From IMG/VR virus record IMGVR_UViG_2585427781_000006: a DNA stretch of 36,824 bases; one strand, 5' to 3'. The translations under genes were made by a program, and so were the position numbers. This stretch comes from a virus. Its lineage: Duplodnaviria > Heunggongvirae > Uroviricota > Caudoviricetes. The first letter of the stretch is position 1, and every line of letters begins with the position of its first letter. Under the pieces are notes generated by a model. It was not told the origin of the DNA. It did no database searches and saw only the letters and a list, made by a program, of their open reading frames with translations. This document shows, one piece after another, positions 1-28,877 of this stretch.

Positions 1-1017
1 TCACACTTCTAGCGTTGCGAGGGGGTTGAATCTCAGAGCCGTCTCAAGATGATCGGGTGCTAAATGGGCATAGCGCATAGTCATTTTTATATCGTGATGT
101 CCGAGGATTTTTTGCAAAGCAAGGATATTTCCACCCGACATCATGAAGTGCGCCGCAAACGTATGGCGCAGAACGTGTGTCAGTTGACCGCGAGGGAGCA
201 CGATAGACGTTTTTTCCATCACGGATAAAAATTGAAAATAGCAGTCTGTAAAGAAATTGAACCCATCAAGCGCCATGATCTCTTCGTAAAGCTCTTTACT
301 GATAGGGATGCTTCTGTTTTTCTTCCCCTTCGTTCTTACAAAGGTAATTCGGTATTTGGTCACTTGCGAGCGGGTAAGATTTATTGCTTCTCGCCAGCGT
401 GCGCCTGTGCTTAGGCATATCTTGACTACCAGTGCCAGAATTGGGTCCTGACGTTTGCAATCAGCCAGCAGTTCAACAATCTGCTCATGGGTAAGCCATG
501 CCATCTCTTTTTCTGCGATGGTGAATTTTCGCATGTTCTCCAGTGGGTTCGGATACGACCATTCGCCCAGGCGGGATAGTTCGCTAAAAACACTACTTAG
601 ATAGCTTTGCTCCAGGTTAATGGTGACCGGGCTTGCTCCTTTCTTCCATTTCTCGCTGAAGTAGATCTCACCTGTCAGGCGTTTATCTCGATAGTGGGCA
701 AACATTTTAGAGGTTAGATCAGTTGCAAGGGGATTGCCCAGAGCGTCAACCATCAACAGCAGTTTGTCATAGACATGCTGCCCAGCTGTCAGAGATTTAC
801 CATGTAGTTTGAACCATAGCTCAATCACGTCTTTCAATGTCCGACGATCCACTGATTCGCCCAGCCAGGGCTTTGCTTCGGTTTCTTCCATCGTGTGACG
901 CTCAAAAGCCAGAGCTTCGCCTTTGGTGGCGAATTGTTTACGCACACGACGTCCACTACGTCCGGCGGGGTAACATTCGCAAAGCCATTTTCCTGTGGTG
1001 AGTTTTCGTACTGCCAT
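1..1017 (-). CDS. int: Phage tyrosine integrase (P2/186 Int family)
   Basis: Tyrosine recombinase catalytic motifs (LRHTFAAHF ... HHDIKMTMRYAHL) in the 1..1095 ORF. Start placed at internal ATG 1017 (MAVRKLTTGKW) because a GGAGGG Shine-Dalgarno lies 8 nt upstream; the track start at 1095 is the alternative. Confidence 0.9.
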   Translation of the reverse strand: MAVRKLTTGKWLCECYPAGRSGRRVRKQFATKGEALAFERHTMEETEAKPWLGESVDRRTLKDVIELWFKLHGKSLTAGQHVYDKLLLMVDALGNPLATDLTSKMFAHYRDKRLTGEIYFSEKWKKGASPVTINLEQSYLSSVFSELSRLGEWSYPNPLENMRKFTIAEKEMAWLTHEQIVELLADCKRQDPILALVVKICLSTGARWREAINLTRSQVTKYRITFVRTKGKKNRSIPISKELYEEIMALDGFNFFTDCYFQFLSVMEKTSIVLPRGQLTHVLRHTFAAHFMMSGGNILALQKILGHHDIKMTMRYAHLAPDHLETALRFNPLATLEV

Positions 1018-1203
1018 AAAAAATGCCCTCCAGTAGAGAGCATTTTTACTGTATGTATAACCAGTGTCAATGTATGAAATCCTGCGACCATACATCTCAC
1101 TGAAGCCATAATGAAGTTAGCTATTTTTTGCTATGTGAGTATGTGACTTTTGCGGTTAGCCTGCGGCTCATTGTTATATTAGGCGCAGGTATAAAAGCAA
1201 AAT

Positions 1204-1410: not shown

Positions 1411-1980
1411 TTACCTAACGTACTTAATTGTTAAACTTATAATTTTCCCAATTATTTCAACATCTTCTATCTTGCACTCGAAGGCTCTGTTTCCACCCTC
1501 GACGAAGATTCTTCCACCGGGTAAACGAGTAATGTCACGGATCGTTATTTCGCCATCAATACTTATTACCCATTTACCATCACGTATATCATCAAATTCC
1601 TTATCACAAATAAATTCAGAATTATTATCTGTGATTACAAAAAGATTCTTGAATGCCGACGGTAGAAATTCTCTATCGAAAATATAAAAACCGTCTTCAC
1701 ACAAGGCCCCATCAGATAATACATATTTAGCAACTTCCATAGTATTTGTATTACCTGAAGTTTGCTTTGAACCATGCCCGGTTGTGAGCCAATTAAGCGA
1801 GGTGCCTGTTTCAAGGGCGCACTGGATTACCCATTCTGCTGGGAATGAGTCACGCATGTAGCGTGTGGCGAGTGTACTTTTAGAGATTCCTAAATGATCG
1901 CACAACGCCTGTCGAGTCTTGAATCCATAAGCTTCTACCATGCGCTCTATAGCGCCTCGTCCGCCTTTCTCCAAATTCAT
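1411..1980 (-). CDS. cI: CI-type immunity repressor (phage 186 CI-like)
   Basis: N-terminal HTH (TRQALCDHLGISKSTLATRYMRD), length about 190 aa and position next to int match 186 CI. ATG 1980 chosen over the GTG at 1986 because GGAG lies 7 nt upstream. Confidence 0.85.
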   Translation of the reverse strand: MNLEKGGRGAIERMVEAYGFKTRQALCDHLGISKSTLATRYMRDSFPAEWVIQCALETGTSLNWLTTGHGSKQTSGNTNTMEVAKYVLSDGALCEDGFYIFDREFLPSAFKNLFVITDNNSEFICDKEFDDIRDGKWVISIDGEITIRDITRLPGGRIFVEGGNRAFECKIEDVEIIGKIISLTIKYVR

Positions 1981-2004
1981 GGTCACTCCAAGTGAACTTT
2001 TATC

Positions 2005-3683: not shown

Positions 3684-3910
3684 TGGCTGATGCAATGGAT
3701 CTCGTACAGCAGCGCGTTGAAGAAGAACGCCAACGCCATATCCGTGCTGCCCGTGCCAAAACGCCGGGCGTGTCCCGCGTGCTTTGCGTTGAGTGTGAAG
3801 CGCCAATTCCGCCAGCACGCCGCCGTGCCATTCCTGGAGTGCAGCTTTGCATTACCTGCCAGGAAATCGCAGAGCTGAAAGGCAAACATTACAACGGAGG
3901 TGCTGTATGA
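3683..3910 (+). CDS. TraR/DksA-family C4 zinc-finger protein
   Basis: 75 aa with CxxC ... CxxC (CVECEAP ... CITCQEI), typical of phage TraR-like proteins. Stop overlaps the dam start (ATGA at 3907..3910). Confidence 0.7.
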   Translation: MADAMDLVQQRVEEERQRHIRAARAKTPGVSRVLCVECEAPIPPARRRAIPGVQLCITCQEIAELKGKHYNGGAV

Positions 3911-4764
3911 GCACCATCCTGAAATGGGCGGGTAATAAAACCGCCATTATGTCCGAACTGAAAAAATACCTTCCTGCTGGCCCGCGACTGGTTGAACCTT
4001 TCGCGGGTTCTTGTGCTGTGATGATGGCGACGGATTACCCCAGCTATCTGGTTGCGGATATTAATCCTGATTTAATCAACCTCTATAAAAAGATTGCCGC
4101 TGATTGCGAAGCGTTTATATCTCGTGCCAAAGTTTTATTTGAGGAAGCAAACAGTGAGCTGGCTTATTACAACATAAGACAGGAGTTTAATTACTCAACT
4201 GAAATTACTGATTTCATGAAGGCGATATATTTCCTGTATCTCAATCGTCACGGTTACCGTGGTTTATGTCGCTATAACAAGAGCGGGTATTTCAACATTC
4301 CCTACGGTAATTATAAAAATCCGTATTTCCCTGAAAAAGAAATTCGCGCATTTGCAGAGAAAGCCCAGCGGGCAACGTTTATCTGCGCGAGCTTTGATGA
4401 AACGCTGGCGATGCTGCAGGTGGGGGATGTGGTGTATTGCGATCCGCCGTATGACGGTACGTTTTCCGGCTATCACACTGATGGTTTCACTGAAGATGAC
4501 CAGTATCACCTGGCATCCATTCTTGAACATCGGTCATCAGAAGGACATCCGGTCATTGTTTCTAACAATGACACATCCCTGATTCGTTCGCTGTATCGCA
4601 ATTTTACTCACCACTATATCAAGGCAAAACGCAGCATCGGCGTGTCAGCTGGCGAGGGTAAATCTGCAACAGAAATCATTGCTGTTTCCGGGCCGAGCTG
4701 CTGGTTGGGATTTGATCCTTCGCGTGGCGTGGATAGTTCTGCCGTGTACGGAGTGTGTGTATGA
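3907..4764 (+). CDS. dam: DNA adenine methyltransferase (Dam-like, GATC-specific family)
   Basis: LKWAGNKT (AdoMet-binding region) and DPPY catalytic motif ([12 protein letters not shown]); overall collinear with E. coli Dam as recalled. Stop overlaps the gpA start. Confidence 0.88.
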
Positions 4765-7175
4765 GTCATGACGATATGAACAATTGCAGCGGCTTTAACG
4801 AGGCCGCCGCAGCATTTTCATGGAACGGCTCGAAAAAGGCCATTAACCCTTATCTGGACCCGGCGGAAGTTGCGCCGGAGTCTGCACTTTCAAACCTGAT
4901 CACTCTGTACGCTGCCGATAACGAGCAGGAACAACTGCGCCGCGAGGCACTGAGTGAGCAGGTCTGGGAGCGTTATTTCTTTAATGAATCCCGTGATCCT
5001 GTCCAGCGCGAAATGGAGCAGGATAAGCTCATTAGCCGGGCAAAGCTGGCGCATGAGCAGCAGCGTTTTAATCCGGACATGGTCATTCTGGCGGACGTAA
5101 ACGCCCAGCCTTCCCATATCAGCAAGCCGCTGATGCAACGTATTGAATACTTCAGCAGCCTGGGCAGGCCAAAGGCTTATTCCCGCTATTTGCGTGAGAC
5201 GATTAAGCCATGTCTGGAGCGACTGGATTGTGTACGTGACAGTCAGCTATCTGTTTCTTTCCGTTTTATGGCAAGCCATCAAGGGCTGGAGGGTCTGCTG
5301 ATCCTGCCTGAAATGAGCCAGGATCAGGTGAAACGCCTGTCCACCCTGGTAGCAGCGCATATGAGCATGTGTCTTGAGGACGCTTGTGGTGATTTGTATG
5401 CCACCGATGACGTTAAGCCAGAAGAAATCCGCAAGACATGGGAAAAGGTGGCAGCGGAAACCCTGCGTCTGGATGTTATCCCGCCTGCGTTTGAGAAACT
5501 TCGTCGGAAAAGAAACCGCCGCAAACCAGTGCCCTATGAACTCATCCCGGGTTCGCTGGCGCGTATGTTGTGTGCCGACTGGTGGTATCGGAAATTATGG
5601 AAGATGCGTTGCGAATGGCGGGGAGAGCAGTTGCGTGCTGTCTGCCTGGTCAGCAAAAAAGCATCCCCCTATGTCAGCTATGAAGCCGTGATGCATAAAC
5701 GTGAGCAGCGCCGTAAGTCGTTGGAGTTTTTTCGTTCTCATGAACTGGTGAACGAAGACGGCGACACGCTGGATATGGAAGATGTGGTAAACGCCAGCAG
5801 CAGCAACCCGGCGCATCGCCGCAATGAGATGATGGCCTGTGTTAAAGGTCTGGAGCTTATCGCGGAAATGCGCAGTGACTGTGCCGTTTTCTACACTATC
5901 ACCTGTCCGTCGCGTTTCCATTCCACGCTCAATAACGGCAGACCAAACCCGACCTGGACAAACGCGACGGTAAGACAAAGTAGCGATTATCTGGTCGGCA
6001 TGTTTGCTGCATTTCGTAAGGCTATGCATAAAGCCGAGTTGCGCTGGTATGGCGTGCGGGTAGCTGAGCCGCATCATGACGGTACTGTGCACTGGCATCT
6101 CATGTGTTTCATGCGTAAAAAAGACCGCCGCGCCATCACTGCATTACTGCGTAAGTTTGCCATCCGTGAAGACCGCGAGGAGCTGGGCAATAACACGGGA
6201 CCACGCTTTAAGTCTGAGCTGATAAACCCGCGCAAAGGTACGCCAACAAGCTATATCGCGAAATACATCAGTAAGAACATTGACGGGCGTGGTCTGGCTG
6301 GGGAGATCAGCAAGGAAACGGGTAAATCCCTGCGTGATAACGCTGAATACGTTAATGCCTGGGCGTCTCTGCATCGTGTTCAGCAATTCCGCTTCTTTGG
6401 CATTCCGGGGCGTCAGGCTTACCGTGAACTGCGATTGCTGGCTGGTCAGGCGGCAAGGCAACAGGGTGACAAAAAAGCAGGTGCGCCGGTACTGGATAAC
6501 CCGCGCCTTGATGCCATTCTGGCTGCTGCTGATGCTGGTTGTTTTGCCACCTATATCATGAAGCAGGGTGGCGTACTGGTTCCCCGTAAATATCACCTCA
6601 TCAGAACCGCTTATGAAATCAACGAAGAGCCAACCGCTTATGGCGATCACGGTATTCGTATTTATGGCATCTGGTCACCCATTGCAGAGGGCAAGATCTG
6701 CACTCATGCGGTGAAGTGGAAAATGGTTCGTAAGGCCGTTGACGTTCAGGAGGCGGCTGCCGACCAGGGCGCTTGCGCCCCTTGGACTCGTGGCAATAAC
6801 TGTCCCCTTGCTGAAAATTTGTACCAACAAGGGAAAGACAAATCAGCTGATGGGGATACCAGAACGGACATTACCCGCATGGATGACAAGGAGTTGCACG
6901 ATTACCTGCACAGTATGAGCAAAAAAGAGCGCCGGGACCTGGCAGCAAGGTTACGCCTGGTTAAACCGAAACGGCGTAAAGACTACAAACAGCGAATTAC
7001 ATACCATCAGCGACTGCAGCTCGTCTATGAGCTGAAGTCCAGAGGATTTGATGGTAGCGAGAAAGAGGTCGATTTACTCCTTCGCGGCGGCAGTATTCCG
7101 TCAGGAGCAGGCTTGCGTATCTTCTATCGGAACCAGCGTTTGTGGGAAGATGATAAGTGGCGGAACCTGTATTAA
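4761..7175 (+). CDS. A: Replication initiation endonuclease gpA (rolling-circle initiator)
   Basis: About 805 aa, following the early genes as in P2/186 gene A. Start at ATG 4761 overlaps the dam stop (ATGA). Confidence 0.88.
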
Positions 7176-8249: not shown

Positions 8250-9116
8250 ATGCAAAGAATTATTCCTGATAAAAATTGGTGGGAAAAAGAGCGTATTAAT
8301 CGTAAAGCATCATCAATATGCCCATATGCTAGTTCATACAGATGTCCTCGATACTATCAGAGTGTAGTTTTGCTCTCAAGCATCAATGTGATAGCTGGTA
8401 TGGCAACTAGGAAAGAAAAAGAGTTGGGCGAATTTTGGGAAAGAACCACTTTCTCATCTTTATGTGATGAAGAAGTCCCTACAGTTACTACAAAAGAATA
8501 TGGCGGCCTTGCATCAGTTAGTAATTTTTGCCCAGAAATATCATTTAGATATTTACACTACTACGCCGATTATATGTGTAAATATGTTGATGAGATAGAT
8601 CAGGACACTGGCAGGCGTATTGCGGAAAAAGATAATTTAGAAAATGATTGGAAATATACATGGATGTCAGTCAATCCTAAATTTTATTTAGATTGCGATG
8701 TTTTTGAAACTGTCAAAAATTTCAATGAAGAATTGGCTAGTGATTACTTAAAAAGATTGCACCCAAATATCGTTCAGCAAATAGATAGAATGAATAATTG
8801 CTTGGATAATAATGATCCGGCAGGTGCACTGCACGCAGCCTCTAATATTTTAGAAACTATGGCTAAGGAAATCACTCAAAACCCGAATGTGGCAAATGAG
8901 TCATTGGGTGGTTTTTTTAAACAGTTCGAAAAAATGTCAAAATTACCTAAGAATCTTATTGATGCTGTTAAAGATATTTATGATTTACGCAACAAATTAC
9001 CTACTGCTGGACACGGAAGCTTGAACAAGCCTGAATTGACTATGGTAGAAGCTATAACTATTGCGGCAATGACAAAGGCGATTTTAGAAATTGAATATCG
9101 AAGCAAAGCCATCTAA
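8250..9116 (+). CDS. Hypothetical accessory protein (AT-rich cargo gene)
   Basis: 288 aa ORF in a strongly AT-rich island. N-terminal Cys pairs (CPYASSYRCPRY). No catalytic motif recognised with confidence. Confidence 0.6.
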   Translation: MQRIIPDKNWWEKERINRKASSICPYASSYRCPRYYQSVVLLSSINVIAGMATRKEKELGEFWERTTFSSLCDEEVPTVTTKEYGGLASVSNFCPEISFRYLHYYADYMCKYVDEIDQDTGRRIAEKDNLENDWKYTWMSVNPKFYLDCDVFETVKNFNEELASDYLKRLHPNIVQQIDRMNNCLDNNDPAGALHAASNILETMAKEITQNPNVANESLGGFFKQFEKMSKLPKNLIDAVKDIYDLRNKLPTAGHGSLNKPELTMVEAITIAAMTKAILEIEYRSKAI

Positions 9117-9365: not shown

Positions 9366-10019
9366 TCATTTCGATGATTGATCCAGATGTGTATATAACC
9401 ATTGAAAGAGTTTTCTAATTTTTGTGATAGTATCTTTTAAATAATTTAAGGAGATTATTATATTATTTTCATTGTTTAATGAAAGAGTAGGTGTTTTATC
9501 AATGATATTTTTTAAGGCTACAGCTGTGCTCATTTTTTTAATGTCTCCATTAGCATGAACTATGCAATTCCTTACTTTGTTAAACTCTGTCATGAATTGC
9601 CACTCTTGTGACAGGCCAAAGTTTATATCCATTAATTTTGTTAAATATCTTTTTGCTTTGTGGATGCCATCACCATTAAAATCGGTTACTGATATATTGG
9701 TGTTTACAATCCTTTGACATATATTGCAATAGTCGTTTAGGTTGTGCTCTAAGCATGAGTATAAAGATACCAAAGCAGATTTATTAAAAATATTTGGTTG
9801 TATGTTAACTAAGAAATCATATTGCTCTGAATAATAGTCTTCTAAGTAATTAATATAATCGTCAGGAGCATTCTTTTTTTCATCTTCATATGCTTTTTTT
9901 AATTCCGATAAGTCAACTCTGTTTTGGCCGCCTGCTCCTAGGATATATTTTTCGAAATCATCAATCTGCGCTTCAAGTGAATATCTTGATAGCTGTGCGA
10001 AAAGTTTGTATTTACTCAT
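9366..10019 (-). CDS. Hypothetical accessory protein with HEPN-like R-N-x3-H motif (candidate Abi-type RNase)
   Basis: 217 aa ORF in the AT-rich island. Motif KVRNCIVHANGD matches the canonical HEPN R-[N]-x3-H signature in spacing and context. Confidence 0.6.
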   Translation of the reverse strand: MSKYKLFAQLSRYSLEAQIDDFEKYILGAGGQNRVDLSELKKAYEDEKKNAPDDYINYLEDYYSEQYDFLVNIQPNIFNKSALVSLYSCLEHNLNDYCNICQRIVNTNISVTDFNGDGIHKAKRYLTKLMDINFGLSQEWQFMTEFNKVRNCIVHANGDIKKMSTAVALKNIIDKTPTLSLNNENNIIISLNYLKDTITKIRKLFQWLYTHLDQSSK

Positions 10020-10362
10020 CGGTATGCCATTCCTTTTTAATTATAAACCTTTGGGTTAAAAGGTGCTGAAAATAGTAACTCATTATTTTTGTTTGTAAAG
10101 GGGGTATTGTTTTTACTAGATCAAGATAAAACAATGGGAATATCCGCTTTTCGCTCACAGCGGACTTTCATCTTTGTAAACCCGTATGATTAGCTTTTCA
10201 GCGGTCATTCAGATACGGATTTACGCTTCCCTTGGCTGTGCATGACTATGACGCATGAGATCGCATGATCGTTAGAGGATCGTTTTTGCTGAGGCCAGCC
10301 AGAACTGGCGTGCTTTTGCTTATGTCGTGCAGGTGCATGAAAACCACTACATAAAGCGGGCA

Positions 10363-10381
10363 GGCGTGGCGGGGATACGAG
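10363..10381. other. Probable cos site (cohesive end region)
   Basis: GGCGTGGCGGGGA at 10363..10375 matches the first 13 nt of the 186 cohesive end as recalled (GGCGTGGCGGGGAAAGCAT; P2 GGCGAGGCGGGGAAAGCAC). Lies in a 500-bp non-coding GC-normal stretch. Confidence 0.45.
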
Positions 10382-10410
10382 CGCGCGCTAAGTCATATAA
10401 GAGTTATATA

Positions 10411-10439
10411 TTGATTTGATTGCTGGACATGCATACAGT
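10411..10439 (+). promoter_or_regulatory. Candidate promoter of the kinase/HIRAN operon (TTGATT-17-TACAGT) with degenerate LexA-like box
   Basis: -35 TTGATT 10411..10416, 17-nt spacer, -10 TACAGT 10434..10439. CTGG-N8-ACAG at 10423..10438 is one mismatch from the LexA box core. Shares the 13-mer ATGCATACAGTAT with the tum promoter region. Confidence 0.3.
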
Positions 10440-10533
10440 ATCGCTCTATCATCTAATAAATCTTAGAGTATTTGACAATGTTTGGATAAAATGGAACCTA
10501 ACTTATTCATAATCCGCTAAACAGGGATGTCAG

Positions 10534-11448
10534 ATGCCATACCAATTGGTAGAGCTTAGCCCCGTAGCTAACGATCTTGAACAGTTAGGAACCAAAGAGA
10601 AGTTTTGGTTCTATTTCTCCGATGACACTGTAAATTTGCAGTTGTTTAAGTACTCTAGGCCAGGTACTGGCGAGCATTGGTCTGAAAAGTGTGCTGCTGA
10701 GTTATGTCATTTGCTTAACATTCCACATGCTAGCTATGATTTGGCGCGATACAATGGTCGATTCGGTGTGGTGACTCAGAATATCATTCCATCTGGTTTC
10801 CGGATGGTAATGGGAAATGAAGTGCTTCACAGTTCGACATTCGATTATCCAGGGCCTTTACAAGCCGGGGAAAAGCCGGTAAGGGTCAGAGAACACACTG
10901 TCACAAGGGTATTGGGTTGTTTAGATAGGGAATCTATCAAGCCTCCTCCGAGTGTATATGATCTAACCGGGCTAAATGCAGCAGATGTATTTTGTGGATT
11001 TTTGATGCTCGATGCACTTGTGAGTAATCAAGATCGCCATCATGAAAATTGGGCGATCATGCTTAACAATGAAACTGGTGAGCAGTTTTTGTGTCCAACA
11101 TACGATCATGCCGCTAGTTTAGGAAGGGAGATGTTAGATGATGAGCGTAACGAACGGCTTAATACTAAAGATAAAAATCGACAAATCCCATGTTTTGTAA
11201 GAAAAGCTCGCTCTGAGCTATTCAAAGCAAAAACTGATAAAAAGCCCTTGCTGACCGTTGAAGCATTTCAACATGCAGTTGAAGGGAGAGTTGCCGCTCG
11301 CGACCATTGGTTAGGTAAGTTGAGCGTTTTAACAGAAGATTCCATTACAGATGTGTTTAACCAAGTGCCTTCATCGTGTATATCCGACAGTGCACGTAGA
11401 TTTGCAACGTTAATGGTAATGGAAAATCGCAGAAGGTTACTAGAATGA
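10534..11448 (+). CDS. HipA-family Ser/Thr kinase, short form (kinase core only)
   Basis: 304 aa. Gly-rich loop-like LGTKEKFWF near the N-terminus (compare HipA VAGAQEKT), catalytic loop SNQDRHHENWA (compare HipA TDGHAKNFS) and CPTYDHAAS (compare HipA TPFYDIIS). Lacks the HipA N-terminal domain. Confidence 0.7.
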   Translation: MPYQLVELSPVANDLEQLGTKEKFWFYFSDDTVNLQLFKYSRPGTGEHWSEKCAAELCHLLNIPHASYDLARYNGRFGVVTQNIIPSGFRMVMGNEVLHSSTFDYPGPLQAGEKPVRVREHTVTRVLGCLDRESIKPPPSVYDLTGLNAADVFCGFLMLDALVSNQDRHHENWAIMLNNETGEQFLCPTYDHAASLGREMLDDERNERLNTKDKNRQIPCFVRKARSELFKAKTDKKPLLTVEAFQHAVEGRVAARDHWLGKLSVLTEDSITDVFNQVPSSCISDSARRFATLMVMENRRRLLE

Positions 11449-12185
11449 CTAATACAAACTCCGTTTACGTCGCATGGCAGGCACCAGATACCAGAGACTG
11501 GCATGTTGTTGGTAACTTGCAAGAGCGCAAATCGGGGTATGTTTTCAGGTATACCAAAGGTGCTCTTAAATCTACTAAATTTACAAAGTTTAGCGGCATG
11601 AGTGATGTTCGTGAAACTTATGTTTCGGAAGAATTGTTTCCTCTTTTTAAAAATCGCCTTTTATCACCGAGACGTCCAGAGTATCCGAGTTTCATTAAAT
11701 GGCTTGGATTTGAAGAAGATAAGGTAAATCCTATCGATATTCTTGCTCGCTCGGGAGGCTTACGAAGCACTGATCAGCTGCAGATTTTCAAAAAAATTGA
11801 TGTTGATTCTGATGGTAACTTTGAGCATTTTTTCTTCTTACATGGACTTGGTTACTTAAATAGCTTAGCTAATGCTCGTGTATCTGAATTGAAACCGGGG
11901 CAAATTTTGCGTCTTTGCTTGGATCTTCAAAATGAATACGATGGGGATGCTGTTGTCGTTCGTGCAGATAAACCAGCTGAAATCGTTGGTTACTGCCCTA
12001 GGTATTTAAGTAATGATATCAAGAAGATGTTATTGGATGATCCAAAATCAATCACTTTAACGGTCGAAAAGATTAGCGATGATGCTCCTCATAACTATCG
12101 GTTATTATGTAAATTATCAGGAGTACTAAGCCAAGCCTGTCAATCGACGCTGATTCCTCAGGATGAGTTTGAACCTATTGAGTAA
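11445..12185 (+). CDS. HIRAN-domain protein with HipA-N-terminal-like (HipS-like) region
   Basis: 246 aa, start overlapping the kinase stop (ATGA). C-terminal LRLCLDLQNEYDGDAVVVRADKPAEIVGYCPRYLSNDIKKMLLD fits the HIRAN signature. N-terminal half shows the pattern of the HipA N-domain (LFKNRLLSPRRP ... PIDILARSGG versus HipA FFDNLLPDSP ... PFDLLSEIGRD). Confidence 0.6.
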   Translation: MTNTNSVYVAWQAPDTRDWHVVGNLQERKSGYVFRYTKGALKSTKFTKFSGMSDVRETYVSEELFPLFKNRLLSPRRPEYPSFIKWLGFEEDKVNPIDILARSGGLRSTDQLQIFKKIDVDSDGNFEHFFFLHGLGYLNSLANARVSELKPGQILRLCLDLQNEYDGDAVVVRADKPAEIVGYCPRYLSNDIKKMLLDDPKSITLTVEKISDDAPHNYRLLCKLSGVLSQACQSTLIPQDEFEPIE

Positions 12186-12219: not shown

Positions 12220-13260
12220 TTATGGGACTATATCTAGCGAGTAGGTATTAAACTGTATCGCCTCCTTGCCAAGCCAATCATTCATCTCCTGTAATCGCTT
12301 TTGTAGTGGCATTAGCTCATTTCGGACGAATACACGGCTGGCCTTCTCCACATCCCCAAACCCCCCGACATTATTAGGCATTATCCCCATCATTTGTGGC
12401 GGCACACGATGCGCCGCCATCATGTCGTCCCGGCTCACGTTCTTGATATTCAGGAACTCATCCTTCGCCGCCACTTCTGACAACGGGATAATCTGAAGCC
12501 CGTCCTTTTTACCGTTAGGCGAGTACATAAACAGGTTACGGAAGTTACCAGGACCTTTGGCGCTTTTCATCGCATTGCGGAGGTTGTTCACATCCTCCTG
12601 GTTCTGCGCTGCATCGGTCATGTACATGATGAAGCCTGCATGACTGCCGTTAATGTAATACTTGCGGCGGAACAGCGTGGCGGACTCGTTGAGCAGAGCT
12701 GACGGAATGGCAGAAAGATAACCAGGCAGGCCGTAGATCTCCTGGTTGATGTCCGGTTCCATCAGATGAAAAATGTTGCCTTTCGTGAACTGATACGGCT
12801 GCGTAGTCATGCCGTATTGCACAAACCAGTAGGTATCAAGGTCTAACCCGCGTCGGGTGTATTTTGCCAGTGCAGGCTCAAGGGCGATAACTTCACCGAA
12901 GCGGTTCGTGCGTTTCTCCAGGTAGGCGTTACCAAAAACCAGATAGTCCTGTACAAAACGCGAAAAAGCCTGCTGGCTGAGCAGCGGGTGAGGGATGTAG
13001 GTGCTGGTCAGAATGTTGCACTTCACTGCAATCGGTGAGCTGTGATGCACGGCGGCGCGGAAGGTTCGCGCCAGTCCGTCGAAACTCACAGGCGGCTCGT
13101 ACCAACGATCCATCTGTACGCATTCCACATAGTCCAGCAGTTCGCGGCGGTCCAGAACAGGAACGGGATCACCGAAGCTGAATGCTTCGGCTGAAGTCTG
13201 GCTTTTATGCTGGATCTGTTTCGTCGACGCAGCGCGGTTCTTCTTACTCTTTCCCATCAA
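12220..13260 (-). CDS. Q: Portal protein gpQ
   Basis: 346 aa, size and position as in P2 Q (adjacent to the large terminase gene, divergent from the capsid operon). Confidence 0.88.
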   Translation of the reverse strand: MMGKSKKNRAASTKQIQHKSQTSAEAFSFGDPVPVLDRRELLDYVECVQMDRWYEPPVSFDGLARTFRAAVHHSSPIAVKCNILTSTYIPHPLLSQQAFSRFVQDYLVFGNAYLEKRTNRFGEVIALEPALAKYTRRGLDLDTYWFVQYGMTTQPYQFTKGNIFHLMEPDINQEIYGLPGYLSAIPSALLNESATLFRRKYYINGSHAGFIMYMTDAAQNQEDVNNLRNAMKSAKGPGNFRNLFMYSPNGKKDGLQIIPLSEVAAKDEFLNIKNVSRDDMMAAHRVPPQMMGIMPNNVGGFGDVEKASRVFVRNELMPLQKRLQEMNDWLGKEAIQFNTYSLDIVP

Positions 13261-15023
13261 AAAATCTCCACAATATTGCTGGTATTGGCGGACTCGCCCT
13301 GCAGCGGTTCGTTAAACAGTGCGTGCATTGTTGCCCAGGCCAGATCGGCATGGCTGGCTTCTTCGCTGCGGCTGGCTTCATAGGTCGGGCGGTTGCCACT
13401 GGCAGTGGTAGCGCGACGGATTGCCATAAATGACTGCGCAATGTCGGTGTGCCCGGCGTCAAACTCCAGACGGCGGTGGCTGATAATGTCGTAGGCCTTG
13501 AGTACCAGGGCGTTTTTAACGTTGGGGTTATAGACAAACTCCCTGACGGCAGGAAAAAACGCTTTCACGTTCTCGTAAACCCCGTGACCGACGCCGGTCG
13601 AGTCGATACCGATATAGGTCACGTTATACTGTTCGGTCAGTTTTTTGATGGCGTCAGCCTGGGCGCGGAAGTCCATCCCGCGCCACTGGTGACGCTCAAG
13701 AATGCGGAACTTACCACCCGGCACGGCTGGCGGAGCCACCACCACGCATCCGGCACTGTCGCCGTTCTGCGTACCTTTTGCCGGGTCATAACCGATCCAC
13801 ACTTCGCGCCAGCCAAACGGGCGCAGGGCCAGTGCATGAAAGTCGGTCCAGACTTCCCAGCTGTCCACCATGCACGCCTGCAGTTCGCTGAGCGGGAACA
13901 CGGACGCGAGATCGTCCACGAACTCGCACATCAGCAGGTTCTGGTATTCGTCCGGGCTGTACTCCATGCGCAGCTGGTCGAGGTCGAACAGGTTACAGCC
14001 GCCGCGCACCGCATCTTCCACGGTGACTATCTGGCGGTATTGCCCGTCTGCGCACAGTAGGCCGGGGGCCAGATTGCTGTGGGACAGGTCGATGTCCACC
14101 TTGTCAGCTTTGTTGCGTCCACGGTTGAACAGCGCACCGGACCAGAACGGATAAGCACTGTGGGTCAGGCTGGATGGCGTGGAAAAATAGGTTTGTCGCC
14201 ATTTCTTGTGAATAGCCATACCGGAAGCCACTTTGCGCAACTCCTGGAATTTCGGTATCCAGAAATATTCATCCAGATACAGGTTGCCGTGGTAACTCTG
14301 CGCCGTGCGGGCATTGGTGCCGAGGAAGTAAAGCGTGGCCCCGTTAGGAAGCACCATCGGATCGCCTTTCAGCTCCACCTCGACTTCTTTGGCGAAGTCG
14401 ATGATGTACTGCTTAAAGACGTGAGCCTGTGCCTTACTGGCAGAAAGGAAAATCTGGTTACGTCCGGTAAGCAGGGCGTCAATCAGGGCTTCACGGGCAA
14501 AGTAAAAGGTCGCGCCGATCTGGCGTGACTTCAGCAGGTTGCGGATGCGGTTGGTTTTTCCGGCTTCCCACCAGTGGCGCTGGTAGTTGAACATGGAGGA
14601 ATGGAAGATTTCTTCCAGTTTCTCTATCTGTTCATCGGTGAAAACATTCTTTTCCGGCTGACGGCGCGGGCCTTTGTTGCGGTTGGCGACGTTAGGGTTT
14701 AAGTCGGCTTCGTTGCCGCCATTGTTAAACTTGCCGATCCGCGCGTGGCGCTCCGACTGGCGCGCCAGCAGGTCAATTTCTTTGAAATCTTTCCCTTCTT
14801 TGTGCTCCTTCATAATGAGCTGGCAGTAGCGTGCGGCGGTGGTGAGCTGCATCTGATCCAGCGGCCCATAGTCACCCCACTTGTCGCGTTTTTTCCAGCT
14901 GTGAACGGTTGCAACTTTCTCGCCCAGCATTTCAGCAATGCGGGCTACGCGGTATCCCTGAAAGTACAGCAGCATGGCCTGCCGACGGGGATCGAGATCT
15001 GCGGGTGTCAGTGTGGTGTTCAT
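13257..15023 (-). CDS. P: Terminase large (ATPase) subunit gpP
   Basis: 588 aa, size as P2 P; stop overlaps the Q start. Confidence 0.9.
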   Translation of the reverse strand: MNTTLTPADLDPRRQAMLLYFQGYRVARIAEMLGEKVATVHSWKKRDKWGDYGPLDQMQLTTAARYCQLIMKEHKEGKDFKEIDLLARQSERHARIGKFNNGGNEADLNPNVANRNKGPRRQPEKNVFTDEQIEKLEEIFHSSMFNYQRHWWEAGKTNRIRNLLKSRQIGATFYFAREALIDALLTGRNQIFLSASKAQAHVFKQYIIDFAKEVEVELKGDPMVLPNGATLYFLGTNARTAQSYHGNLYLDEYFWIPKFQELRKVASGMAIHKKWRQTYFSTPSSLTHSAYPFWSGALFNRGRNKADKVDIDLSHSNLAPGLLCADGQYRQIVTVEDAVRGGCNLFDLDQLRMEYSPDEYQNLLMCEFVDDLASVFPLSELQACMVDSWEVWTDFHALALRPFGWREVWIGYDPAKGTQNGDSAGCVVVAPPAVPGGKFRILERHQWRGMDFRAQADAIKKLTEQYNVTYIGIDSTGVGHGVYENVKAFFPAVREFVYNPNVKNALVLKAYDIISHRRLEFDAGHTDIAQSFMAIRRATTASGNRPTYEASRSEEASHADLAWATMHALFNEPLQGESANTSNIVEIF

Positions 15024-17077: not shown

Positions 17078-17728
17078 ATGAGCCTGAGTCCCGCACGGCA
17101 GCATCGCCTGCGCGTTCAGGCTGAACAGGCCGCCCGCGAGGGCGGCAGCGTTCGCCACGCGTCGGGCTATGACCTGATGCTGCTGCAACTGGCGGAAGAC
17201 CGCCGCCGTCTCAAGGGCGTTCAGTCCACGGTCAAAAAAGAGGAAATCAAGGTGGAGCTGCTGCCGAAGTACGCCGCCTGGGCGGAGGGTGTCCTTGCTG
17301 CCGGAGGCGCTCAACAGGATGACGTGCTGATGTACGTGATGCTGTGGCGCATTGATGCCGGAGATTATGCCGGGGCGCTGGAGATCGGGCGTCACGCCCT
17401 GCGTCATGGCTGGGTGATGCCGCTGGGTAATCGCAATGTGCAGACCGTGCTGGCAGAGGAAATGGCAGACGCGGCGCAGAGCGCAATGCTTGCCGCCACC
17501 GGCTTTGATGCCGATCTGTTGCTGCAGACGCTGGAGCTGACAGACGGTCTGGATATGCCGGACCAGTCACGGGCGCGTCTGCATAAAGCGATTGGCGCTG
17601 TCCTGAGTGAAAGCAATCCGGCTTCCGCCCTTAACCATCTCAACCATGCGTTGCAGCTCGATCCCCGCTGTGGCGTGAAAAAAGACAAACAGCAGCTGGA
17701 GCGCAGACTGCGCAATGACAGCCGCTGA
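17078..17728 (+). CDS. M: Terminase small (endonuclease) subunit gpM
   Basis: 216 aa, follows N as in P2. Confidence 0.82.
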   Translation: MSLSPARQHRLRVQAEQAAREGGSVRHASGYDLMLLQLAEDRRRLKGVQSTVKKEEIKVELLPKYAAWAEGVLAAGGAQQDDVLMYVMLWRIDAGDYAGALEIGRHALRHGWVMPLGNRNVQTVLAEEMADAAQSAMLAATGFDADLLLQTLELTDGLDMPDQSRARLHKAIGAVLSESNPASALNHLNHALQLDPRCGVKKDKQQLERRLRNDSR

Positions 17729-28574: not shown

Positions 28575-28877
28575 ATGAGCGATAAGCAGACTGAAAAGAC
28601 CATTCAACTGGATACCCCCATCAAGCGCGGTAAAACAGAAATCACCGAAATTGTGCTGCGTAAACCGCAGTCCGGTGCGCTGCGCGGTATACGCCTGCAG
28701 GCCATTATGGATATGGATGTAAACGCGATGATGATCGTGATCCCCCGCATCTCCAGTCCGGCACTGACTGCACAGGAAATTGCAGAGATGGACCCGGCAG
28801 ATCTCACTGCCATGTCGGTTGAGGTTGTCACTTTTTTGTTGAAGAAGTCGGTGCTTGCCGGTTTACCGACAGCCTGA
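28575..28877 (+). CDS. E: Tail assembly chaperone gpE
   Basis: 100 aa, upstream of the tape measure gene; contains the slippery heptamer near its 3' end. Confidence 0.82.
   Translation: MSDKQTEKTIQLDTPIKRGKTEITEIVLRKPQSGALRGIRLQAIMDMDVNAMMIVIPRISSPALTAQEIAEMDPADLTAMSVEVVTFLLKKSVLAGLPTA

Follow-up and report, generated by a model that had tools for sequence, protein, structure and literature searches.

Phages of the P2 type package monomeric circles. In the cosB region of phage lambda the R3, R2 and R1 sites for gpNu1 are accompanied by an IHF site, I1. The cos sites of P2, 186 and P4 are the subject of Ziermann and Calendar (1990), as cited in PMC9122126 and PMC9594776. The homology of P4 to P2 is confined to the cos region, and a hotspot for cargo genes adjacent to cos was described by Rousset et al. 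(both PMC9122126).

In bacteriophage P1 the packaging site, pac, contains seven TGATCA/G hexamers in 161 bp; its cleavage is regulated by Dam methylation, and the packaging enzyme can require methylated GATCs (PMC10028697). It is a headful site, with its seven elements inside pacA on both sides of the cut. To our knowledge P1 pac is the only site at which methylation is established to gate packaging. DNA is hemimethylated just after its replication, and in enterobacterial hosts the readers of bare GATC are Dam, SeqA and MutH. Dimers of SeqA need two hemimethylated GATCs on one helical face, 7 bp between the sites being one of the spacings used in binding assays (PMC2691817). A paper of 2020 considered the role of phage-borne Dam enzymes to be still not well understood (PMC7556043).

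The stretch of DNA analysed here (the window, 36,824 nucleotides) is a P2-like prophage, as seen from its ORF layout and from the Pfam matches of its Dam, gpP and gpM, and is of the Fels-2 type. The ORF map places the integrase at 1..1095 and the repressor at 1411..1986, both on the minus strand. A D12-class N6-adenine methyltransferase of the Dam class, which the original prediction had reported and which Pfam bears out, is encoded on the plus strand at 3907..4764 (PF02086, E 2.4e-75), directly upstream of replication gene A (4755..7175). The end of the dam ORF (4764) overlaps the GTG start of gene A at 4755, an overlap which suggests that the translation of Dam is coupled to that of the replication initiator. 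The portal gene Q (12220..13260) and the gpP-like large terminase subunit (13257..15023) are on the minus strand; the N-terminal Terminase_5 domain of the latter also gave a sub-threshold match to sigma-70 region 4. The gpM-like small terminase subunit lies on the plus strand (17078..17728; PF05944, E 1e-39).

The 19-nt cohesive end, GGCGTGGCGGGGATACGAG (10363..10381, plus strand), was located by its homology to the annotated ends of P2 and 186, and aligns with GGCGAGGCGGGGAAAGCAC of the former and GGCGTGGCGGGGAAAGCAT of the latter. As in the P2 family (Peduoviridae), it lies between the gene A side and portal gene Q with cargo on both sides. Upstream of it three GCAT repeats and a proximal TGCATGAAAACC element stand at the P4/P2 offsets, as in the region common with P4. 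On homology, map position and common repeats alike, the element described below is assigned to a P2-family cos site.

The nick region is contained in a conserved cos block of about 150 bp (10238..10396, plus strand) with variable cargo on both flanks. When phage records were searched for distant matches only 10238..10396 (query positions 219-377) found any, at 87-93% identity, in Fels-2, SopEPhi, RE2010, Klebsiella phages and Yersinia phages; the flanks found none. The block is present in 1277 of 5426 complete E. coli genomes, joined to differing left or right flanks. Since the flanks differ while the block matches, it represents a constant module between two variable cargo regions. No promoter-like site was seen within 10238..10396, and no Rfam family matched 9900..10700.

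Three GCATGA repeats, at 10240, 10253 and 10263 (10240..10268, plus strand), are followed by a fourth at 10335. GCAT repeats occupy the same offsets, about -123, -110 and -100, in P2, 186, P4 and about 150 P4-like satellites. Since the cos region is all that P4 has in common with P2, the simplest view of the repeats is as putative terminase recognition elements, and they are probably those of this whole cos family, analogous to cosB; we found no description of GCATGA repeats in this cos family in the literature searched. The minimal P2 cos, at about 125 bp, would reach the repeat region. The likeness to lambda cosB is one of layout only, both having several short repeats beside the nick along with an accessory element among or adjacent to them; neither the sequences nor the proteins are homologous, cosB is placed on the opposite side with respect to the first-packaged end, and methylation plays no part in it.

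The proximal GTGCAGGTGCATGAAA element (10327..10342, plus strand), which includes the fourth GCATGA repeat, is invariant among 66 blocks, and a proximal TGCAnnTGCATnAAAAC element is common to P2, 186, P4 and this block; GTGCATGA occurs twice, at 10238 and 10333. A terminator-like hairpin (10294..10309, plus strand) has two mismatches against the relatives' consensus GGCCCGCCAG..CTGGCGGGCTTTT; over 10294..10318 the stem reads GCCAGCCAG/CTGGCGTGC here as against GCCCGCCAG/CTGGCGGGC in the consensus of the relatives. The terminator may be relaxed in this phage, since no plus-strand gene ends just upstream. The Fels-2-type block resembles the cos sites of P2, 186 and P4 in its homologous 19-nt end, its GCAT repeats, its TGCAnnTGCATnAAAAC element and its place on the map, and differs from them in the addition of a pair of GATC sites, directly after repeat 3 and before the hairpin, and in some members of extra sites at -104 and -40. 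The extra GATC at -40 is seen in Fels-2 (L001), in L004 and in many Klebsiella loci, where it forms part of GATCATGCA; this sequence is the repeat-3 element TGCATGATC (about -100) in reverse complement, and its place in the window is taken by GTCGTGCA. In one sub-lineage of relatives the stretch that separates the GATC pair from the proximal element has an unrelated sequence, and a short ORF of about 30 codons running through the block, which in Yersinia phage MLG42 carries the annotation of a hypothetical protein, was considered unlikely to be a gene.

The original prediction had drawn attention to three GATC sites within 23 bp about 100 bp from cos. The sites do start at 10259, 10267 and 10278, which is 104, 96 and 85 bp before the cohesive end (10363..10381), the offsets -104, -96 and -85 following from the placement of the nick at 10363 by alignment with the P2 and 186 ends. 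The first (10259..10262) falls between the second and third GCATGA repeats, in a spacer that varies. The second (10267..10270) directly follows the third repeat, its G being the last base of the GCATG core. The third (10278..10281) is 11 bp from the second, start to start, leaving 7 bp between them, and GATCGTT stands as a direct repeat at both (10267 and 10278). No other three GATCs in the window are as close together, the next-tightest cluster spanning 71 bp. The total number of GATCs is ordinary (130 versus 127.6 expected). The estimate that accompanied the prediction, about 0.1 sites expected by chance in such a span, is a post-hoc local expectation and overstates the case: for three GATCs to be packed into 23 bp at any place in the window the probability is 0.22 for uniform placement and 0.12 for first-order Markov sequences. 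On window statistics alone the triplet is not significant. Two further GATC pairs, each 6 bp apart, are found in coding regions, at 14990/14996 in terminase gene P and at 28733/28739 in an ORF (28575..28877) that stands upstream of a 1025-amino acid ORF; both are probably due to chance.

For comparison we assembled 120 loci from viral contigs that contain the cos core, 54 loci in species-representative genomes that have the exact cohesive end, and reference phages. Fitch changes were counted for each column on a neighbour-joining tree built from 66 distinct blocks of the Fels-2 type. The four columns of site 10267 (-96..-93) changed 1, 1, 1 and 1 times, and those of site 10278 (-85..-82) 1, 0, 2 and 1 times. 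By comparison the 7-bp spacer within the pair gave 3, 4, 3, 10, 13, 1 and 4 changes, and the ten columns 3' of the second GATC 4, 4, 4, 3, 8, 10, 1, 5, 9 and 13. Since the GATC columns change far less than the spacer and flanks, 10267 and 10278 are under selection as GATC and 10259 is not: its columns (-104..-101), with 9, 11, 13 and 9 changes, belong to the most variable 4-5 bases of the block, where relatives read AAATC, AATCC, GATTC, AAAAC or AGATT. The triplet thus survives as a pair, and site 10259 is probably lineage-specific and incidental.

Within the pair, relatives carry CGTTTGAG, CCAAAAAG, CCAAATAT, CTAAATAG, CGTTACAG and other spacers. The base before the second GATC is G, A or T and the base after it G, A, T or C, although columns -87 and -86 (AG before the second GATC) and -81 (G after it) are also fairly conserved. 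To judge from these alignments the conserved unit is the GATC tetranucleotide itself and not its context. Where one of the sites has been lost, further changes are mostly seen in the same part of the block, such as in a GCATG repeat or in the hairpin; these loci (L099, L130, L146, L159) may be prophages in decay. The 11-bp start-to-start spacing is kept in the relatives, with both sites on the same helical face and within about three turns, as SeqA targets require.

The pair at -96/-85 also occurs next to cohesive ends of other types, namely ATAGCAT (L029, L100, L103, L122) and AAAGCAT (L082). Among these a terminase gene was available for L103 and L122, and there the large subunit has only 67% identity to that of the window; nearly all -96/-85 pairs accompany a terminase at least 89% identical to it. 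A different pair, GGATC-N5-GGATC, is found at -50/-40 in other P2-like lineages (L030, L066, L079, L108), between the hairpin and the proximal repeat, and the two pair positions are independent of each other. A prophage of Pasteurella testudinis (L151) with the same cohesive end has GATCs at -132, -91, -77, -50 and -39, with five RGATCT in 140 bp, and so carries this second pair as well, at -50/-39. Enrichment was measured on 89 cos regions clustered below 85% identity. The density of GATC is 0.71 per 135 bp in these regions versus 0.30 in their flanks, and of pairs spaced by 10-11 bp there are 18 in 12 kb of sequence near cos versus 7 in 816 kb of flanks, an enrichment of about 175-fold, in which the counts are not independent events because the sampled lineages are related.

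Several cos sites of this type lack the pair. There is no GATC in the 220 bp before the nick in P2, 186 and P4, and the P2-type cos regions have 3 GATCs in 27 representatives. PSP3 has a single GATC, at -50, and no pair; in Wphi no GATC is seen over about 165 bp up to the end of its record. The pair is consequently not needed for this cos type in general, being absent from P2, 186, PSP3, Wphi and about 150 satellites, all in Dam-positive hosts. The P4-like satellites (L184-L263, L268-L347) have 4 GATCs in about 100 distinct sequences of 135/140 bp, against an expectation of 0.30 per 135 bp. We considered them as a natural experiment and ruled this out: the cohesive ends of these satellites (about 150, in two Psu clades) are of the AAAGCAC or AGAGCAT types and none is ATACGAG, so they are uninformative as to whether a Fels-2-type terminase needs the pair.

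In Chitinimonas (Betaproteobacteria), seven loci share the cohesive end and the repeats but read GCATGATT, without any GATC. Each of these genomes carries several copies of the cos region (L131, L132, L136, L137 and L161 in Chitinimonas sp. BJB300; L140, L164 and L175 in C. taiwanensis), which have the exact 19-nt end of this enterobacterial phage and keep the GCATG repeats; the portal gene of L137 is 70% identical to that of the window. No pair is present in L025, whose cohesive end is that of the window and whose terminase is 84% identical, which tells against the pair as a functional subsite. Of three Erwiniaceae loci (L134, L143, L149) that share the cohesive end and lack GATC two are uninformative, L143 being a remnant adjoining host lptF/lptG and L149 having only defence-like cargo nearby. 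HP1 was set aside as an independent Dam-carrying relative, since its cos lies elsewhere in the map and has different repeats, with no GATC within about 100 bp.

The original prediction tied the cluster to the phage's own Dam. Among loci in which the presence of dam upstream of gene A could be judged, the pair is accompanied by dam in 23, by a dam remnant in 1 and by no dam in 7; of those lacking the pair, 3 carry dam (L089, L113, L119) and at least 14 do not. Phage-borne Dam is thus neither necessary nor sufficient for the pair, and the association between the two is largely a lineage effect. Enterobacterial hosts have Dam of their own, so the dam-less carriers do not argue against a role for methylation. 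Taken together the comparisons point to a real, previously undescribed conserved feature, which is a pair and not a triplet, is tied to cos and not to cargo, and is independent of the phage's own Dam.

The location of the pair inside the cos block after repeat 3, the conservation of GATC itself and the recurrence of 10-11-bp pairs fit the connection between packaging and Dam methylation that had originally been proposed, albeit for the two sites and not for the triplet as a unit. Such conservation suggests that packaging reads the methylation state of the DNA. We favour, tentatively and as something short of probable, the view that the GATCs at 10267 and 10278 are a cos subsite which senses methylation state and is read by terminase or SeqA. 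The two sites, one helical turn apart and some 90 bp before the nick, would then form a functional cos subsite making the use of cos dependent on Dam methylation. By one route terminase would bind or cut only with both sites fully methylated, as at P1 pac; by the other SeqA would hold the hemimethylated pair on freshly replicated circles and bar terminase until methylation was complete. By either route packaging would be limited to finished monomeric circles. The remaining site, at 10259, would be an incidental extra which could add to the effect without being under selection.

A methylation-state sensor is favoured because both the spacing need of SeqA and the precedent of P1 pac match. The Chitinimonas loci, which keep the cohesive end and repeats and have no GATC, may also count in its favour. 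The pair lies on one helical face with 7 bp between its sites, like the SeqA targets assayed (PMC2691817), and so has the sequence required of a candidate SeqA target; being on a fast-replicating replicon it would be transiently hemimethylated. We found no report of SeqA binding at cos in literature searches. Paired hemimethylated GATCs are bound by SeqA in oriC sequestration and at the dnaA promoter; oriC differs in having 11 GATCs and in controlling the initiation of replication, not the cutting of DNA. The pair may also work like P1 pac, to which it bears some likeness: GATC elements in the packaging site of a temperate enterobacterial phage, which in this window has its own Dam while 7 relatives with the pair have none, and a first conserved site, TGATCG, that is one of the two forms of the P1 hexamer (PMC10028697). 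The site is nevertheless not of the P1 pac type by architecture, since two conserved GATCs are found on one side of the cos nick, 85-96 bp from it, instead of seven around a pac cut, without the multiple repeats of pac; the P1 terminase family is also unrelated to the terminase here. A wider proposal holds that in a large set of P2-like phages of enterobacteria cos cleavage is gated by replication or methylation state through the GATC pair, with SeqA or terminase as reader, that this arose at least twice, at -96/-85 and at -50/-40, and that it gives a reason for the position of dam beside the replication gene in many of them; in this full form we consider it doubtful.

The main rival is an ordinary sequence-specific protein site, in which the pair would be half-sites for the small or large terminase subunit or for a host bending protein, containing GATC by happenstance, with methylation irrelevant or tolerated. 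The pair abuts GCATGA repeat 3, so that the conservation of the first GATC could partly be that of the repeat, and the consensus GCATGATCS-N5-GGATCG is partly palindromic, L029 reading GATCCAAATTGGATC. The fair conservation of -87, -86 and -81 fits a longer protein motif, and the restriction of nearly all -96/-85 pairs to terminases at least 89% identical, in effect one clade, is what a cognate site would give. Against this, the bases flanking the second GATC vary among A, T, G and C while GATC is constant, and the pair is found with a 67% identical terminase and is missing with an 84% identical one (L025). A second GATC pair of the same spacing has also appeared at another position in other lineages, and it would be an unlikely coincidence for the two conserved tetramers both to be Dam sites. 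We regard this explanation as rather unlikely, though to be taken seriously.

It is improbable that the cluster arose by chance and is conserved only through sitting in a conserved block. The window-wide probability of such a cluster, the ordinary frequency of GATC and the lack of conservation of 10259 agree with it, but 10267 and 10278 are far more conserved than the spacer and flanks of the same block, 10-11-bp pairs are greatly enriched beside cos, and the loci that have lost a site are mostly changed elsewhere too and may be decaying. Chance explains only site 10259. Control of transcription, whether of methylation-dependent cargo expression, as the original prediction had offered as its second possibility, or of termination at the following hairpin, is very unlikely indeed: promoters can lie near cos, as the P2 old-tin transcript starts about 150 bp before it, and a terminator-like hairpin does follow the pair, but relatives that have the constant block in common differ in the cargo on either side of it and in how that cargo is oriented, the block has no promoter-like site and no Rfam match, the neighbouring gene (9366..10019) is 220 bp away in cargo-specific DNA, and the layout of the Dam-dependent phase-variable promoters of the pap and agn43 type, with GATCs in a regulator site overlapping a promoter, is not seen in the block.

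If cos cleavage is indeed gated in this way, no earlier methylation checkpoint would be on record for a packaging site of the cos type; our literature searches on GATC, Dam or SeqA at P2-like cos sites, and on undermethylated sites in Fels-2, returned nothing relevant. Fels-2-type prophages are very common, occurring in E. coli, Salmonella, Klebsiella, Yersinia, Enterobacter, Citrobacter and Pantoea, and a two-site element beside cos is easily mutated, which offers a direct test of whether cos phages sense methylation or replication. The answer bears on the design of cosmids and transducing particles of the P2/P4 type. Should methylation prove irrelevant, the element still marks a conserved subsite in a poorly mapped cos region.

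Lastly, the cargo on the right of cos (10534..11448 and 11445..12185) corresponds to the PADLOC candidate defence system PDC-M03 (A, E 1e-121; B, E 3e-93). In Pfam its A component gives a weak HipA_C match and B contains a HIRAN domain. This two-gene cassette lies on the Q-proximal side of cos, the less usual one, and separates cos from the portal gene. The left cargo comprises genes at 8250..9116 (plus strand) and 9366..10019 (minus strand); neither matches a Pfam family, and the latter has a weak PADLOC match to RTasHEPN/DRT (E 1e-5). These two genes may be another defence cassette in the P2 hotspot.
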